NCBI GenBank assembly: GCA_951406725.2 | Contig: OX597814.1 | Coordinates: forward strand, 172,484,001 to 172,548,000 | From: Octopus vulgaris | Lineage: Eukaryota | Length of the DNA: 64,000 nucleotides | Direction: 5' to 3' | Shown: piece after piece, positions 14,581-45,105 of the stretch | Layout of the letters: each line of letters opens with the position of its first letter | Position numbering within the stretch: position 1 is the first letter of the stretch | The notes under the pieces: generated by a model | Databases searched by the model: none | Told to the model about the DNA's origin: nothing | Seen by the model: only the letters and a program-made list of their open reading frames with translations | Program-made: the position numbers and the translations under genes

Positions 14581-14800
14581 TACCAATTAAGGACTGAACA
14601 CGAAAAGCGAACAGTCAGCATGCTAGATATAGACGTCAAATCGCCATTCTCCACAAAGATTATGTTCTCAAATCAAACTCAGCACAGTTTGATTTGTGCT
14701 GAGTTTGATTTGAGAACATAATCTTTGTGGAGAATGGCGATTTGACGTCTATATCTAGCATGTTGACTGTCCACTTTTCGTGTTCAGTCCTTAATTGGTA
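14581..14800. mobile_element. Palindromic island in (TA)n (arms 14581-14686 / 14695-14800)
   Basis: 106-bp arms with about 3 mismatches, TA on both sides; carries a TTTGACGTCTATATCTAGC motif variant; no hammerhead core. Confidence 0.93.
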
Positions 14801-15218
14801 TATATAAATATTTTAATCTTCGGATTCTTTTTTAATATGCTAGACCACTGGTTTTAATTGATAAATATCAATTTCTACCCTTAATTAATTATATATATAT
14901 ATTCACTAATTTCAATCATTGGCCTGCAACAATGCTGCGACACTGCCTGGAAGAGATTGGTCGAATAAATGGGCACACGTAGTAAATTTAAACACAACAA
15001 CTATTCTATTAGGGTTTATCGTTGACGTGCTTTATGGTGTCGTAAATAAACCAGCACCGGTTGTCAAGAGGCGGTGTGGGGAACAAGCACACACACACAC
15101 ACACACGCGGTAGTATTATTATATGCACCCAAGTTTAAGATTGGGCATTCATCGTGTGTGAATATAAAATTGAAGAGCTCGGACTCAAGAAGGAGTACGG
15201 TTGGACATTTCTTTATTA

Positions 15219-15311
15219 TTCGCTACAGCTGTTTCGACACAAGAATAGAGGTATTTGATTATGGAACTGTTTGATTGCATACTGAGATCTAGTTCTGTTT
15301 CCTCAGGTGAT
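15219..15311 (-). ncRNA. Hammerhead motif, mildly degenerate, within a diverged inverted repeat (15165-15237 / 15501-15569)
   Basis: tcac CTGAGGA aaca...tgtc GAAAC agct GTA gcga; palindromic ACAGCTGT. Confidence 0.75.
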
Positions 15312-15779
15312 ATACGAGTGTTGTCTCCGTTAGCTTAAATTCGTCGACTTCAAGGCCATCACTGTTCGTCGTGGTTTGAAATTAGTAGCGGCTGATGGAC
15401 CCATGGTGTTTACTGCGAGAGCATATTTGTCGGACTGCTATGAACAGTTGTAGATGGTACTGGCTGGCGTAATCAAATTTTCTTGGAGAACAATGTTACT
15501 TCGAAACAATTGAAGCGAATAATAAATATCGAACCATACTTCTTCTTCACTCCAATCTCTTCAATTTTAAATATATACATATGTGTATATATGCGTATAT
15601 ATACAAATAAATATGTGTGTGTGTGTGTGTGTATGTGTAAATATATTTATGATACATACCCAGGGTAAAAAATATACTCTTATCAACATGTTAAACATAT
15701 TGTCATTTACGTAGGAATATTTAAATCTACGCACATATCGCATACATCTATACATCTATCTATACCTCTGTATTTTTGC

Positions 15780-16785
15780 AGGTATGTATATATGTTTCTC
15801 TGTATCAATATATACATCTCTCTCTCATACATATATGCATGTGTGTGTATACACATACATACTTATGTATATATATATATATATATACAGATAATATATA
15901 TATATGTATACTTACATATATATATATATATATATATATATATATATATATATATATATATATATTATATATATATATATATATATATATATATATATAT
16001 ATATATATATATATCAAGCACATAAAAATACATGCTTACACACAATCTAACTTAATTATATACACGTACAAGCATAATGAAATTTATACATACTCACATG
16101 TACGTATTTCTGTTTGTCTGTGTGCCTCTCTCTCTCTCTCTCTATGTGTATACCTCTATCTGTGTGTGTATATATATATATATATGTATACGTGTGTATG
16201 TGTGTTTGTGTGTGTATATAGGTATGCATATATGTGTTTGTATATATATACATACATACATATACATACATATATATATATGTACACAAACATATATATA
16301 TACATACATACATACATGTATACATACCAGATACATACATCCATACAAAAATTAGTACATACATACACATATCCGATATGCATATATACGTATTCACACA
16401 CAGACACACATACATACATATATTCATTCATAAGTACATATATACGTACTAGGTACATACATACATGTACAAACGCACACATACACATATACCATATATA
16501 TATATATATATATATATACACGCACACGCACGCAGACACACGTACATTCACACAGGCATACATACATACATACATACATACATACATACATACATACATA
16601 CATACATTCATACACATACATACGTACGTACATACATACATACATACATTTTTACACACAGACACACATACATACATAATACATACATACATGCATACAT
16701 ACATACATACATATATACATACATTCATACATACATACATACAGACATATATACATACTTACTTACGTACGTACGTACACAGCAA
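15780..16785. repeat. Compound microsatellite (TA)n/(TG)n/(TACA)n
   Basis: Direct reading; source of the 342-aa pseudo-ORF. Confidence 0.95.
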
Positions 16786-17052
16786 CACACGGAGCTGTAG
16801 GTAAGTCGATGCATAGTTACATAGATATACATAAGAACCATGAATGACAGTTACGGGCTTCAGTCGGTCGGTGATTGGTTTATCGTCGACCTTCTGTCTC
16901 ACACAGTGTTCCTCTTCACCGACCAATCTGACAGGCAACGTCGGAAAACTTTTATGGTAGCTAACTGACAAGTATTTCTAATCGGAACGCCAGTACCTCT
17001 GACCGTTATCGACCCCCTACTTCATTTTAACGCCCTACGCTACCAAACAATC

Positions 17053-17120
17053 CGCCATCATCACCGCCGCCGCCACCGCCGCCGCCACCGCCGCCGCCAC
17101 CGCCGCCGCCACCGCCGCCA
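17053..17120. repeat. (CCGCCGCCGCCA)n GC-rich tandem repeat
   Basis: Direct reading, 4-5 units. Confidence 0.9.
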
Positions 17121-17271
17121 TTTCTATTGTATGTAATATCCACCATAGAAGAGTGCCTCGTTTCTCTTTCTTGTCTTTTGTTTTCCATTTTCCCTACCCA
17201 CTTCCTTTCTTACAACCGACCCATCCACCATATCATTCTCGCTCGCTCTTTCCCACTCCTCTCTTTTACAT

Positions 17272-42503: not shown

Positions 42504-42539
42504 CTTTCTGTGGAAGAGCGTAGGCTCGAAACGTAAAAG
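42504..42539 (+). ncRNA. 36-nt minimal hammerhead-like motif with A6U core, in a TA-flanked island (42446-42630)
   Basis: cttt CTGTGGA a gagc gtag gctc GAAACGTA aaag: stem I cttt/aaag, stem II gagc/gctc, ACGT palindrome, GUA. Confidence 0.7.
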
Positions 42540-42846
42540 ACTTTTTCAATTCCTGAGCGTTATACTAATGCATCTGTTTGTTTTCCACATCACCCGTCTT
42601 CGTCCTTTGTTTTTTCCCTGAATTCTCCCTATACATATATATATATATATATATACATATCTTACTTTGGATTTACTGGTGTAAAATGGCGTAAATATAT
42701 GAAAAGTTATATAAGGATATTAAGTATATGATTTAAGTTATAGAACGAAGTTCAACAAAATTCAATCATATTTTTCATAACTGGAGGAGATTAGATGGGA
42801 TAAAATATCTGGGATAAAATATATGGGATAAAATATCTATTCAATT

Positions 42847-42926
42847 TGCTTGACGATCATTTCGTACAGAAAGACAATAAATTCAGTGTAAGAATCTGCG
42901 TTGTCAAAGAGTGCTCATCAGTGGCA
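42847..42926 (-). ncRNA. Degenerate hammerhead motif
   Basis: tgcca CTGATGA gcac...gtac GAAA tgatc GTC aagca; stems partly mismatched. Confidence 0.6.
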
Positions 42927-44118
42927 CAATAAGAAAAAATAAGAACTTAATAAAGAAACAGGTGGATTTAAGAATTACATGGGTATTGTGTTCTTACTAA
43001 TATTTAATGTATAATTTTTCTAGGAGTCATGTCTATTTAAAACACGCCTAACGAGCAAAAGTTAGGTGATGATATATATAACATAGAAATACAGGTAACT
43101 TTCTCTCTATAGATTAGTGTAAATGAGCTAGTTTAAAAATCTATATAGGAAGAAGCAAGTGGGGTTGATAAACCAAATAAGGAAGTACGGAATATTTAAA
43201 TACAGGAGACTGAAATTTATATTTGACCGTTAATAACCATTTCGGCTTCTTTTAAATTAGAAAAAAATGTTTAAGAGCCCTCATTAATGATTAGTGGTAT
43301 ATAAACTTTACAACAGAATGTTAATGTAAATAGTATATTAGAAATATAGGAGATAATCTACCGAAAATAGTTAAAGTAGTAAAATTTAGATACTAATACA
43401 ACAATATTAGAAAAGTATGAAAATTATGAAGATAATAAATAAATATATGAAAAAAGAGGATATTTTACTTACAATGTTCGCTGCTAAAACTATGAAACAT
43501 CTATGGAATGGTATATAGAAGAAATATATCGAAAAGATTAGAAAATAATTTTAGAGAGACTAAATATAATCGAAAGTTGACTAGTGTAGAGAAGACAATA
43601 GATAAGGGGGAAATGATCTAGCTTATATCTGCTAGGAGACTGGAAAAATTAGAAATATTGGCATTATATGTATATGGGTATGGTTACTCAGAAAAATATT
43701 TTCTTGTGTTATATATAATTATACATATAAAGGTTTGTACATGTAGATACGGGTACAACTAAATATGCATATATAAAAAAAAACAATTTGTGTACAAGTA
43801 AAACAACAATTATATGTATACACATACAATGTATAATCTGAACATTATGGACAATGAAGTAATCAGACATCGAAATATACGATAAGGCACATATGCACCC
43901 TATAGACGATAGTGACAAAGAGATACTCTTATACATGGAACACCTGTAGCCATGTACATATATGTACATAATTATAATTTTCATACGTAGATACATACAA
44001 AAATATGTACAGACAGACACACACACACACATACATATATATATATATATATATATATATATATATATTCCCGAGGCATCGATGCGGCTGCCTCGTGGAA
44101 TATTTATTCCTCCTGGCT

Positions 44119-44226
44119 TCCTTGCCGATGAGACGAGCCAGTGGTAGATTAACTTGATTAAATTTAATTTAATTTAATTAGGGTGGTTTGCCAAAAAGTA
44201 CGTCGAAACAATGCATTGTCCAAGGA
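44119..44226 (+). ncRNA. Type I hammerhead with U4C core and 12-nt palindromic stem III
   Basis: Stem I tccttg/caagga; CCGATGA 44125-44131; stem II gacg/cgtc; GAA-ACAATGCATTGT-C; island 44068-44353 bounded by (TA)n on both sides. Confidence 0.85.
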
Positions 44227-44384
44227 TGATTAGGGTAAATGTTTTTAATTTTCCTTTGATTTCTGAATTACTACTATTTAGCGGTTTGAGTTTGGCTGCT
44301 CTTTCTAGTGAGTCGAATGACCTATCAGGGCCATTCCTTAATATTGTTGAAATTATATATATATATATATATATATATGAAGGT

Positions 44385-44793
44385 TGCAAAATAGCACCTA
44401 CAATTGTTAGAAATGAGAGCCAAAATTTAACTCGAACGGCCACACAAAATCTCTGACCTCATGAAATTGCGAACAGCAGGCCATATCTTTCTTTGGCGAG
44501 ACACACTCACAGAATGAAGTAGTTTGATAAGACCTTAACACTTGATTTCTGAATTTGATCAACGTGATCTCGTTTCTCATCAGTGGTTTCTACAATTACT
44601 CTATTGATCAAATTTCGAAATCCCATGCTAAGTCTTTATGAAACTATTTCATTCTGTGAGTGTATCTCGCCAAAGAAAGATGTTGTGGCCCGCTGCTCGC
44701 AGTTAGTAATATTTCATGAGGGCAGAGCTTTTGTGTGGATGTTCGTGTTAAATTTTGGCTCTCATTTCTAGCAATTGTAGGTGCTATTTTGCA
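44385..44793. mobile_element. Old palindromic island (arms 44385-44562 / 44604-44793) with decayed hammerhead (CTGATGA on minus at 44577-44583)
   Basis: Outer ends near-perfect, interior diverged with indels; TTTGGCTCTCATTTCTAGC motif near the outer ends. Confidence 0.88.
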
Positions 44794-45105
44794 CCCCCAA
44801 TTATTAATTTCACCTTTTTGGCTTTAATTGCTACAGCCGCCTATATTATAATGTATTCAATATATCTTAATATATTATTATAATATCTTATTGTATGTTA
44901 TATATATATATATATACTAAGCAATAAAGGGTTTAGCAACGAATTGCCTTACCACAGACCGAATTTAGAAATAGCAGTCAAAGAGTTATAGCTATTTCTT
45001 CTACTAAAAAGGGAGATCTCAGTAAAAAACACAGCAATTGGAAGGCAGACACAAACAGGTAAGAGAGAATGAATTGACGGCAATCTATCATACAATTTTA
45101 AGTTA

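Follow-up and report, generated by a model that had tools for sequence, protein, structure and literature searches.

Comparison of its carriers identifies Box 1, a 19-base motif (TTTGRCTGCTATTTCTAGC), as the most conserved block of the 3'-terminal module of many non-coding retroelement families, and we consider it probable that, as RNA, this block is what a Penelope-like reverse transcriptase-endonuclease recognises and what positions the start of copying. Two roles raised by a previous sequence-only reading, RT recognition site and 3'-end signal, would fit the published biology of Penelope-like elements (PLEs).

Box 1 in the window and in the genome

Box 1 sites were scored by their number of mismatches. 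With up to 3 mismatches allowed, the window, the whole 64-kb stretch of DNA that was analysed, contains 7 sites; the expectation from 100 shuffles is 0.03, and none of the shuffles reached 7. All of the motif sites listed by the sequence-only reading are present, confirming its observation. The motif is matched with 2-3 mismatches at 44291-44309(+), 44754-44772(+), 44964-44982(-), 14741-14759(+) and 14622-14640(-), the last of these being the mirror of the site before it. The copy at 20115-20133(+) matches less well, differing from the consensus in its G form at 5 positions, and retains the 3' half CTTTCTAGC; its mirror lies at 19974-19992(-), and the mirror of the 44754 site lies at 44406-44424(-) with 4 mismatches. 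Six further sites, all without a TA flank, had been absent from the earlier list: 32537 and 32805, found by the window scan at up to 3 mismatches, and 22662(+), 39935(+), 36393(-) and 23512(-), each with 4. The self-pairing GCTA-TTTC-TAGC that had been proposed for the motif is, as read from the sequences, not retained among Box 1 variants. The features of the window are as follows.

14584..14790, no strand: head-to-head palindrome whose 96-nt arms are 97% complementary; contains Box 1 at 14622-14640(-) and 14741-14759(+)
19922..20193, no strand: head-to-head palindrome; weak variant of Box 1 at 19974-19992(-) and at 20115-20133(+), with (TA)n following after 60 nt
32537..32555, + strand: Box 1 in a SINE-like unit of class 2, without TA flank
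32805-32823(+), 22662-22680(+), 39935-39953(+), 36393-36411(-), 23512-23530(-): further class 2 Box 1 sites
44119..44226, + strand: hammerhead-like motif of the island 44069-44353, from the architecture scan
44291..44309, + strand: Box 1 of the same 285-nt island, 44 nt before (TA)n
44315..44336, + strand: hairpin GAAUGaCC...GGgCAUUC, with CUUAAUAUUG directly after it
44379..44898, no strand: head-to-head palindromic island; Box 1 at 44406-44424(-) and 44754-44772(+)
44917..45484, - strand: nearly unit-length copy of Fam-A, non-coding and retrozyme-like, its 3' end abutting (TA)n at 44916
44930..44953, - strand: Fam-A hairpin GGU..GGCAA-UUCG-UUGC..ACC, between Box 1 and the AU-rich box
44964..44982, - strand: Box 1 of Fam-A, a young family with a 596-nt unit; (TA)n follows after 47 nt
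45106..45205, - strand: hammerhead-like type I motif of Fam-A, from the architecture scan

Exact copies of Box 1 number 4599 in the 2.8-Gb genome (reversed control, 0), and 664 kb chosen independently of the motif contain 52 sites with at most 4 mismatches (reversed motif, 2).

In TA-flanked islands Box 1 reads outward and lies 28-69 nt upstream of (TA)n; besides the spacings listed above, the distance from its end to (TA)n is 39 nt in both arms of the palindrome at 14.6 kb and 28 nt at 44406(-). The site at 44754(+) is 126 nt from (TA)n because its arm, the right one, extends ~98 nt beyond the end point of the left. Within the unbiased 664 kb, a (TA)>=4 run starts 28-69 nt downstream of Box 1 at 12 of the 52 sites, while only 2 of the 52 have a run ending within 75 nt upstream. 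The core TGCTATTTCTAR followed by (TA)6 at 30-60 nt occurs at 34 sites within the initial 14 Mb of contig 1, against 26 sites of the reverse order ((TA)6 upstream of TGCTATTTCTAR) in 157.6 Mb, a density of (TA)6 downstream of the motif ~15 times that upstream (distinct listed sites, tallied by hand); the reverse-order sites are 5'-truncated copies with differing start points. The bias in position and strand toward the TA junction that the sequence-only reading had described is thus strong, both in the 664-kb sample and in the genome-wide (TA)6 density. No (TA)n run lies within 75 nt downstream of Box 1 at 40 of the 52 sites, which are mostly SINE-like; the sample puts this kind at about three quarters of carriers across the genome.

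The 3' module and the two classes of Box 1 carrier

The TA-flanked carriers share a fixed order, in which Box 1 is followed by a hairpin, an AU-rich CUUWAU box and (TA)n, and in which the sequence of the hairpin varies among families with compensatory changes. The Fam-A hairpin is followed by CUUUAUUGCUUAG and then (TA)n, and both sides of the palindrome 14584..14790 carry a hairpin GACUG...CAGUC, then CUUAAUUGG, then (TA)n. RNAalifold, run blind on 20 diverse 3' ends, predicted the hairpin, with changes on both sides in 5 of 11 pairs and 16 double-change cells compared with 9.0 in shuffles (16 reached in 0 of 500; slid controls at most 3); these sequences are related and were selected by a pattern fixing Box 1, so that conservation of Box 1 in this set is by construction and the shuffle control overstates the support. 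The hairpin was also predicted in all 14 further 3' ends of different families, with z <=-2 in 7 of them, and is directly followed there by CUU(A/U/G) in 9, a variant in 3 and neither in 2. Pairing of Box 1 with the upstream AGAAAUAGC showed compensatory change in 0 of 9 pairs.

Since this larger module of motif, hairpin and AU-rich box is common to the islands, they are not "otherwise unrelated" as the sequence-only reading had it. Its view that the carriers are not one family aligning end to end holds: all-against-all BLAST of 61 Box 1 carriers gave similarity mostly only from about -35 to +35 of the motif.

Most of the 40 unbiased sites lacking nearby (TA)n belong to class 2, the SINE-like carriers without TA flank, which have a wider, weakly similar block from about -45 to +48 around Box 1. 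RNAalifold predicted no structure for 29 class 2 sequences, and no hammerhead was seen in this class, whose 3' boundary is approximate. Similarity among the 29 copies stops ~48 nt past Box 1, which places the block at the terminus.

Retrozyme-like carriers and Penelope-like elements

A scan for the complete architecture of the type I (minimal) hammerhead (core, helix I, helix II and cleavage triplet) found 4 matches in the window; 30 block shuffles averaged 0.03, and the reversed sequence had none. Two of the 4 have Box 1 downstream. Rfam returned no families for the whole window at the gathering threshold, no hammerhead row for two window islands at E<=10, and no hammerhead for three Fam-A loci at E<=1. 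The Fam-A motif is composed of a CUGAAGA core, a helix II insert of ~69 nt, GAAAC, a 1-bp helix III, the cleavage triplet GUC and a 6-bp helix I, with cleavage predicted after 45112, 130 nt upstream of Box 1. That of the island 44069-44353 has a U4-to-C core (CCGAUGA), a 73-nt helix II insert, GUC and a palindromic helix III loop (AAUGCAUU), and its predicted cleavage after 44220 falls 71 nt upstream of Box 1. The placement of the motif downstream of ribozymes stands for these two window islands and does not extend to the 664 kb, where Box 1 lies downstream of 2 of 11 hammerhead-like motifs. The palindromes lacking a hammerhead had been explained as more severely truncated 3' ends, and the family of the 14.6-kb palindrome bears this out as 5' truncation of head-to-head copies: at three loci its arms measure 96, 130 and 419 nt and share one outer end, and reading by eye places a hammerhead-like motif in the 419-nt arm but not in the short ones.

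Fam-A was followed through a genome search in which 40 of 1937 candidates were scored and 45 matches listed, most of them 99-100% identical and spaced at 596 nt, the period of its tandem arrays; identity at this level in some families indicates very recent activity. Truncated copies among the matches listed (query 112-414, 189-412 and 195-414) retain the 3' end, and a tandem junction with 28 extra letters occurs in run contigs of uncertain type. Among 36 Fam-A-type copies, 19 continue into the next unit or tail, ~10 stop at one point (...CTTAG or a one-base variant), 3 stop 7-8 nt further on and 3 stop earlier.

The carriers behave like non-autonomous PLEs, or non-LTR retrozymes. They form tandem arrays, 5'-truncated copies that keep the 3' end and inverted neighbours; they insert into (TA)n microsatellites with an optional short tail past the usual end; and they have no recognisable coding capacity (Pfam families in 0 of 8 open frames upstream of Box 1) in a genome that also holds autonomous RT + GIY-YIG elements. 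PLE insertions are described, in the available portion of the source, as 5'-truncated, tandem or inverted, with a 30-40 bp tail and a preference for (TA)n (PMC8557442), and animal retrozymes are described in the accessible part of a preprint as non-autonomous PLE derivatives (bioRxiv 10.64898/2026.07.22.740005). The octopus carriers resemble animal non-LTR retrozymes (Cervera and de la Pena 2020, PMC7229834; Li et al. 2026, 10.64898/2026.07.22.740005), as presented in the available parts of these papers, in being short non-coding tandem repeats with type I hammerheads (putative in the octopus carriers) and in co-occurring with PLEs, by which such retrozymes are presumed to be mobilised. They differ from the retrozymes covered there in that their hammerhead-like motifs have very long helix II inserts and a 1-bp helix III and fail Rfam, in that most Box 1 carriers have no hammerhead, and in having a second conserved motif, of which those same parts make no mention.

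The genome offers abundant candidates for an enzyme supplied in trans. GIY-YIG candidates number 6136, with 148 of the 150 scored being matches; there are thousands of candidate RT + GIY-YIG elements, likewise ending at (TA)n, and one 596-aa open frame contains both RVT_1 and GIY-YIG. A AGCAGCATTTTCGAACTTC-type box precedes (TA)n at the end of 22 of 30 fetched GIY-YIG copies, and 5 of the 30 loci have a 33-nt extension past the end of the autonomous family. Exact Box 1 was found in the own 3' UTR of none of these 30 loci, and in the 3 with a motif nearby it sits in separate adjacent insertions. It was likewise missing from those PLE fragments of the 664 kb whose 3' ends were read, both PLE open frames that occur at motif-bearing loci read from the opposite strand, and no autonomous element with an exact Box 1 module was found among the PLE copies examined. 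The AGCAGCATTTTCGAACTTC 3' box of the dominant autonomous family resembles Box 1 over ~20 nt when the two are aligned by eye.

Possible function of the module

In the mechanism we propose, the enzyme, supplied in trans, would bind tandem or read-through transcripts at Box 1 and the hairpin, and its endonuclease would nick a (TA)n tract. DNA synthesis would begin at an internal position of the RNA, the AU-rich stretch immediately 3' of the hairpin, and every new copy would therefore end at that position; the less frequent longer ends would come from starts lying a few bases beyond it, and the 5' truncations and inverted pairs from premature stops or template switching. Class 2, with the same Box 1, may be served by the same or a related enzyme acting on another target, GT-rich low-complexity DNA. 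To our knowledge almost nothing is known of how PLEs choose and prime their RNA, one enzyme having been studied in vitro, with its binding site mapped to ~170 nt.

A purified PLE enzyme initiates reverse transcription internally, at a stem-loop that lies ~90 nt beyond the point of hammerhead cleavage, and requires an RNA segment near this start site (PMC11167929). The octopus module has the same layout as the PLE start region and tail (Poseidon, green anole, Frangieh et al. 2024, PMC11167929; Craig et al. 2021, PMC8557442), namely a hammerhead (in octopus a hammerhead-like motif) followed after ~100-200 nt by a stem-loop where copies end; as far as the available text of these two papers goes, it also shares with the Poseidon/PLE tail discrete and alternative ends and an RNA that continues past the start point, and with PLEs generally AT-rich or (TA)n targets and tandem, inverted and 5'-truncated insertions. 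The sequences differ; Poseidon starts in an AC-rich stem-loop inside its ORF and the putative octopus start region is AU-rich and lies beside (TA)n. The main text on Poseidon describes no short box shared by families, whereas a 19-nt box is common to many non-coding octopus families, and the Poseidon start was mapped biochemically with purified enzyme, whereas the octopus module is known from sequence (PMC11167929).

It is rather unlikely, though able to hold together with an RNA role, that Box 1 acts as DNA, being all or part of a site that the GIY-YIG endonuclease recognises in existing copies; new copies would then home beside old ones, building tandem and same-orientation clusters. Carriers often occur in clusters of this kind, with different families in the same orientation a few hundred bases apart (loci L001, L004, L027 and L029; 32537/32805 in the window), there are tandem arrays of 596 nt and of 172 nt (L098), and the Penelope endonuclease is reported to require the 'tail' of its own element for cleavage (cited in PMC11167929). 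Such a site would leave the covarying hairpin, which points to RNA, unexplained, and most copies of the TA class sit in plain (TA)n without an older neighbouring copy.

Equally doubtful is a functionless Box 1, the slowest-decaying remnant of one old ancestor that seems conserved through motif-based finding. The wider block common to class 2 carriers agrees with shared descent, and motif-based sampling does inflate the apparent conservation; however, 10 of 31 matches to a non-overlapping upstream anchor carry Box 1 at a fixed +6 with 1-6 of 19 positions mismatched (the reversed anchor gives 7 matches), very young families with unrelated bodies keep it, and neutral decay would not preserve its place relative to the hairpin and the element end. 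We give still less weight to a pseudo-LTR promoter or transcription box that drives the next tandem unit or binds a host factor. The module does lie upstream of the next unit in tandem arrays, and PLE promoters have been placed in pseudo-LTRs (PMC11167929), but solitary, severely truncated copies of little more than the module are common, and such copies would have no benefit from a promoter directed into (TA)n. That the palindromic islands are MITEs of a TA-targeting DNA transposon, with the motif as a subterminal transposase-binding site, is highly improbable despite their palindromic form, the TA on both sides and a mariner fragment adjoining one island, given arms of 96 to 419 nt with a fixed outer end in one family, where a MITE family would share terminal inverted repeats of one length, the occurrence of tandem arrays and of 5'-truncated copies with a single arm, hammerhead-like motifs upstream, and terminal sequences that differ among families.

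As a recognition and start-positioning signal, the module would account for the TA-flanked palindromes and islands of the octopus genome. For mutation in a priming assay it offers an RNA element that is small and precise and whose distance from the copy end is fixed, and the genome supplies a natural mutational series of many families sharing only the 19-nt box, the covarying hairpin and the AU-rich box near the copy end. A comparable arrangement, reportedly described by Kajikawa and Okada in 2002 (a paper cited in PMC5786205), is that of LINE/SINE pairs of the stringent type, which share a 3' tail with a stem-loop recognised by the LINE enzyme. Common to both is that non-autonomous families with nothing else in common have the same short 3' module, in which a hairpin lies beside a terminal simple repeat; unlike LINE/SINE pairs, the putative system has a telomerase-like RT with a GIY-YIG nuclease, forms tandem and inverted copies, and has no autonomous partner with the same tail among the octopus PLE copies examined.

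More tentatively, Box 1 and the hairpin might constitute a portable 'copy me' tag: read by telomerase-like Penelope reverse transcriptases, it would have made mobile the hundreds of unrelated short sequences that acquired it. Carriers number ~2 x 10^5 on a rough extrapolation from 52 sites in 664 kb. Under this reading a large share of the SINEs annotated in the octopus genome would be driven by PLEs rather than LINEs, and the module would be the first sequence-level RNA recognition code of this enzyme class, obtained by comparative genomics alone. The module also suggests a possible dependence of some of the very large 'SINE' load on enzymes of the Penelope type.

The class 2 carriers had been overlooked in the sequence-only reading. 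A Ceph-related 23-mer given in the available text of PMC4824008/PMC5786205 does not resemble Box 1, the comparison covering that 23-mer. Like the SINE superfamilies CORE, V, Deu, Ceph and Meta, as described in the available parts of PMC4824008 and PMC5786205, class 2 comprises many diverged short families with one conserved block. Its assignment to a SINE superfamily with a central conserved domain was rejected, as neither an A nor a B box, and hence no Pol III head, could be recognised in the units read, and the conserved block lies at the 3' end, not in the middle between a Pol III head and a LINE-derived tail as in those superfamilies.

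Distribution of Box 1 and its two classes of carrier

The observation of Box 1, a 19-base motif near the 3′ end of short non-coding retroelements, is confirmed. In the window the pattern TTTGRCTGCTATTTCTAGC with up to three mismatches gives seven matches against 0.03 expected, and none of 100 shuffles reaches seven. All five sites named in the sequence-only reading (44291-44308(+), 44754-44772(+), 44965-44982(-), 14741-14760(+) and 20115-20133(+)) are present, four of them with two to three mismatches to Box 1; the site at 20115 keeps the 3′ half of the motif but has five mismatches to the G form. 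The palindromic mirrors that had been claimed are found at 14622-14640(-), 44406-44424(-) and 19974-19992(-). Across the genome (2.8 Gb, 227 contigs), in which the window occupies contig 1, 172,484,001-172,548,000, exact TTTGRCTGCTATTTCTAGC occurs 4599 times and the reversed pattern 0 times. An unbiased sample of 664 kb, chosen regardless of the motif and made up of the window and 60 segments, each of 10 kb, placed at round coordinates, contains 52 Box 1 sites at up to four mismatches versus 2 for the reversed motif, from which a crude extrapolation puts the genome total at ~2 × 10^5 copies.

The strand and position bias proposed for the motif is borne out by the unbiased sites, with (TA)n starting 28-69 nt downstream in 12 of the 52 and ending within 75 nt upstream in 2. 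Genome-wide, TGCTATTTCTAR followed by (TA)6 at 30-60 nt has a forward-strand count of 2918 versus 2 and 5 for the controls; on the reverse strand, overlapping TA matches raise the count artificially. Counted by hand, this order accounts for 34 distinct listed sites in the first 14 Mb of contig 1 and the opposite order, (TA)6 before TGCTATTTCTAR, for 26 in 157.6 Mb, so that the two orders differ ~15-fold in density. Sites in the opposite order arise where a copy happens to have been 5′-truncated 30-60 nt upstream of the motif.

The 12 sites with downstream (TA)n correspond to the TA-flanked islands described earlier from the sequence, in which Box 1 reads outward (the TA class). Most of the remaining 40 belong to a second class that had been overlooked, referred to here as class 2, in which short, SINE-like units without a TA flank carry Box 1 within a weakly conserved block extending from about -45 to +48. 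Class-2 units are frequently flanked by GT-rich low-complexity DNA and frequently arranged in same-orientation clusters or tandem arrays, as in the spacerless head-to-tail array of 172-nt period at L098:3000-4700 (L-numbers denote genome loci outside the window), where the sequence block following Box 1 runs straight into the TTTAGCCC start of the unit. No consensus structure was predicted from 29 class-2 sequences, and the head pattern TTTAGCCCCAGG was rejected as a universal feature, being present in just 4 of 31 sources. An end-to-end alignment of the carriers as one ordinary family would have spoken against the sequence-only reading, but they are no such family: in an all-against-all BLAST of 61 carriers similarity is mostly confined to ~35 nt either side of Box 1. 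The available text of a repeat annotation of a 2.8-Gb octopus genome reports 893 recently active 'unclassified SINE' families (PMC13282606); that the present genome is of that kind and that class 2 is among such families is conjecture only.

Features in the window (coordinates without a locus name) and at outside loci
32537, 32805, 22662, 39935, 36393(-), 23512(-): class-2 Box 1 sites
~49880-49978(+), 62200-62292(+), 5265-5360(-); also L013, L008, L029: CORE-like SINE at (TA)n
44140-44195; L073 unit (~865-895); upstream regions of L147 and L159: palindrome flanked by GGGTGRAAT
3210-3334(+); L088, L131, L078, L098: hammerhead-like family with tcactttcCTGAGGA…attttcGAAACatgtgtc
L037:2700-2870 and 21 other GIY-YIG loci: hammerhead-like stretch of the dominant Penelope-like family

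Copies of a tRNA-derived CORE-like SINE (…ACCTTGGGCAAGTG…GGAAACTGAAAGAAGCCCGTCG) terminate directly at (TA)n. At L008 and L029 a 5′-truncated class-2 block directly follows the 3′ end of this SINE, and TGTTTAGCCCC is common to the SINE 3′ region and the start of the class-2 unit. At L015:1490-1610 a ~100-nt hairpin has at its base two Box 1 copies in tail-to-tail orientation, the opposite of that seen in the TA-flanked palindromes.

The 3′ module and upstream hammerhead-like motifs

When 20 diverse 3′ ends from the 'TCTAA' group are aligned, Box 1 is followed in turn by a linker (TTCGGTRTGYGG), a hairpin, CCCTTWATT and (TA)n. In a blind run on these ends RNAalifold predicts the hairpin with compensatory changes in three pairs, and an 11-pair version has changes on both sides in 5 of its 11 pairs. 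Double changes occupy 16 cells, compared with 9.0 in shuffles (0 of 500 as high) and at most 3 in slid controls; these counts come from related sequences chosen with a pattern that fixed Box 1, so the covariation is supporting evidence rather than proof. More telling are the families with unrelated sequence after Box 1, in which a hairpin is predicted at the same position in all 14 ends folded (z-score ≤ -2 in 7) and is directly followed by CUU(A/U/G) in 9, a variant in 3 and neither in 2. The variants at 14741 and 44754 and the TCTAA families retain neither the partial self-complementarity noted for the motif itself (GCTA-TTTC-TAGC) nor its longer CUGCUA/UAGCAG version, and this self-pairing was rejected as a conserved structure. 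A possible pairing of Box 1 with the upstream AGAAAUAGC shows sequence conservation, with 91% of cells paired, and no compensatory changes. Several TA-class units have, towards their 5′ part, a second hairpin-like feature that spans families: an AT-rich palindrome bordered by GGGTGRAAT ... ATTTCACC(C).

Rfam returned no families for the whole window at the gathering threshold; at E ≤ 10 every one of the best 150 of 391 rows was a microsatellite resembling an miRNA family, and no hammerhead was reported in islands 44069-44353 and 44379-44898 or in three loci of Fam-A, a young non-coding retrozyme-like family with a 596-nt unit. An initial regular expression (helix II up to 70 nt) found just two candidates, both distant. 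The type I architecture scan specified a core of CUGANGA or CCGANGA, a helix II with at least 3 closing pairs enclosing no more than 170 nt, GAAA, a helix III of 1 bp, a UH cleavage site and a helix I of at least 4 pairs. It gives 4 matches in the window, where 30 block shuffles average 0.03 and the reversed sequence has 0, and 11 in the 664 kb, compared with 0-2 in five shuffles.

All four hammerhead-like motifs in the window are oriented towards a TA junction 35-195 nt away. The placement of Box 1 downstream of the putative ribozymes holds for two of these four, but 9 of the 11 motifs in the 664 kb have none (best match 8-9 mismatches), and Box 1 therefore characterizes a single group of lineages rather than all of them. 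Cleavage is predicted after 44220 in island 44069-44353, with Box 1 71 nt further, and after 45112(-) in Fam-A, with Box 1 130 nt further. The commonest hammerhead-like family of the sample (…tcactttcCTGAGGA…attttcGAAACatgtgtc|gaaagtaaa) has (TA)n ~50 nt past the predicted cut, lacks Box 1 and has a distinct 3′ end, …CTCCATTTATTTATTCA.

Fam-A ends, Penelope-like elements and the putative role of Box 1

The window island 44917-45484(-) is a member of Fam-A, which is very young: the genome search listed 45 matches, mostly 99-100% identical (40 scored of 1937 candidates). Among the matches listed, adjacent copies lie at a spacing of 596 nt, the 3′ end is retained where matches are truncated (query 112-414, 189-412 and 195-414), and head-to-head pairs are present. 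The array at L073 is built of the 596-nt unit with (TA)n at the end of the last one; Tandem Repeats Finder, with a longest period of 500, did not report the 596-nt array. Among 36 Fam-A-type copies in the sequence examined, 19 read on into the next unit and ~10 end at one point, while of the remaining ends 3 lie 7-8 nt beyond the main end and 3 earlier. Directly upstream of the window copy, across a short TA run, lies a mariner-like fragment (45540-46140(-)) whose reading frame starts MTEKVEQRICIKFCQKLGDTCS.

In sequencing runs kept as contigs, none of those listed being recorded as RNA, at least half of the sampled Fam-A words are present in 20 rows from 9 studies and five organism codes, and contigs of four runs with four organism codes cover the element with the tandem junction visible. 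Of 39 base differences listed along 571 nt, one falls in the 69-nt module (44917-44985), compared with ~4.7 if evenly spread, which is a weak hint of cross-species conservation of the 3′ module because the contigs mix many copies.

Penelope-like elements (PLEs), which encode a reverse transcriptase (RT) and a GIY-YIG nuclease, are abundant: 148 of the 150 scored among 6136 GIY-YIG candidates match, many within 781-aa open frames, and one 596-aa frame contains both RVT_1 and GIY-YIG. A CX4CXXC linker (CGRPNCGIC), tied to (TA)n targeting in the available text of PMC8557442, precedes the PLE nuclease domain. Of 30 fetched GIY-YIG copies, 22 share a terminal AGCAGCATTTTCGAACTTC-type box located 12 nt before (TA)n, and 5 (L035, L042, L045, L059 and L060) carry the same 33-nt extension past the usual end before (TA)n, as would be expected for a Penelope 'tail'. 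Aligned by eye, the box of the dominant PLE family, whose RT plus GIY-YIG protein has 781 aa, appears similar to Box 1 over ~20 nt. Also read by eye, this family has a hammerhead-like stretch ~70-110 nt before its end, TTGATAAG-GTTC...GAAC-CGAAAC, in which U3/A8 replace C3/G8, a paired change that would keep the C3-G8 contact. Its 3′ UTR (L037:1940-2400) contains ~60-nt tandem repeats, each GATTGGTCAAAA...TGATGACGTC with a CRE-like TGACGTC core.

With a purified Penelope-like enzyme, reverse transcription begins at an internal position of the RNA, a stem-loop ~90 nt beyond the hammerhead cleavage site; the RNA segment at the stem-loop is required, and the genomic 'tail' of PLEs is explained by alternative adjacent starts (PMC11167929). 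The same layout is found here: hammerhead-like motif, ~70-130 nt, Box 1, hairpin, AU-rich box and copy end. Because of this match, and because the distribution of the 36 Fam-A-type ends fits one main internal start with minor starts, we read Box 1 and the hairpin as a putative signal that would bind and position the RT. The AU-rich box would then be the priming place for the nicked (TA)n end, with the enzyme supplied in trans, most likely from the dominant, apparently intact PLE family. This mechanism is proposed by analogy with one biochemical study. The interpretation in the sequence-only reading is in part supported, and the cis element suggested there is sharpened to a 3′ module with three parts. 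The scheme is weakest on the autonomous partner: among the loci searched, none with the exact module was found at the 30 GIY-YIG loci, tblastn with a 597-aa frame found no autonomous Box 1 carrier in the 664 kb and 75 motif loci, and Pfam identified no family in any of the eight reading frames lying upstream of Box 1.

As DNA, Box 1 could be a homing site for the endonuclease, a role compatible with that in RNA; it would account for the clusters of carriers but leaves the covarying hairpin unexplained. With low probability, Box 1 may instead act as a promoter. Neutral descent is weakened by sampling with an anchor independent of the motif, in which 10 of 31 hits have Box 1 at a constant offset of +6 with 1-6 mismatches (the reversed anchor has 7 hits), and by the presence of Box 1 in very young families with unrelated bodies. 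Cis-acting 3′ modules by which non-autonomous retroelements borrow an RT are of a known kind, and an internal start at a stem-loop is already known for PLEs. A full-text literature search found no description of the letters of Box 1, and a second conserved motif is unmentioned in the available text of PMC8557442, PMC7229834, PMC11167929, PMC13282606 and the 2026 preprint 10.64898/2026.07.22.740005.

Head-to-head palindromes

The window palindrome at 14584-14790 belongs to a family (the 14.6-kb family) with arms of 96 nt in the window, 130 nt at L109 and 419 nt at L135, each 97% complementary. A reading of the TA-flanked palindromes as MITEs with fixed terminal inverted repeats is rejected, because arm length varies within this one family while the outer end is identical at all three loci; the palindromes of this family are shown to be independent 5′-truncated head-to-head pairs. 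At window 2404-2574 a short island adjoining (TA)n is bordered by two 3′ ends in palindromic arrangement; these carry GCATTTTCAAAC, which resembles the autonomous family's box. Read by eye, the 419-nt arm contains a hammerhead-like motif ~95 nt upstream of Box 1, which the scan missed because helix II closes imperfectly, and which supports the earlier explanation of the short palindromes lacking a hammerhead as more severely truncated copies.
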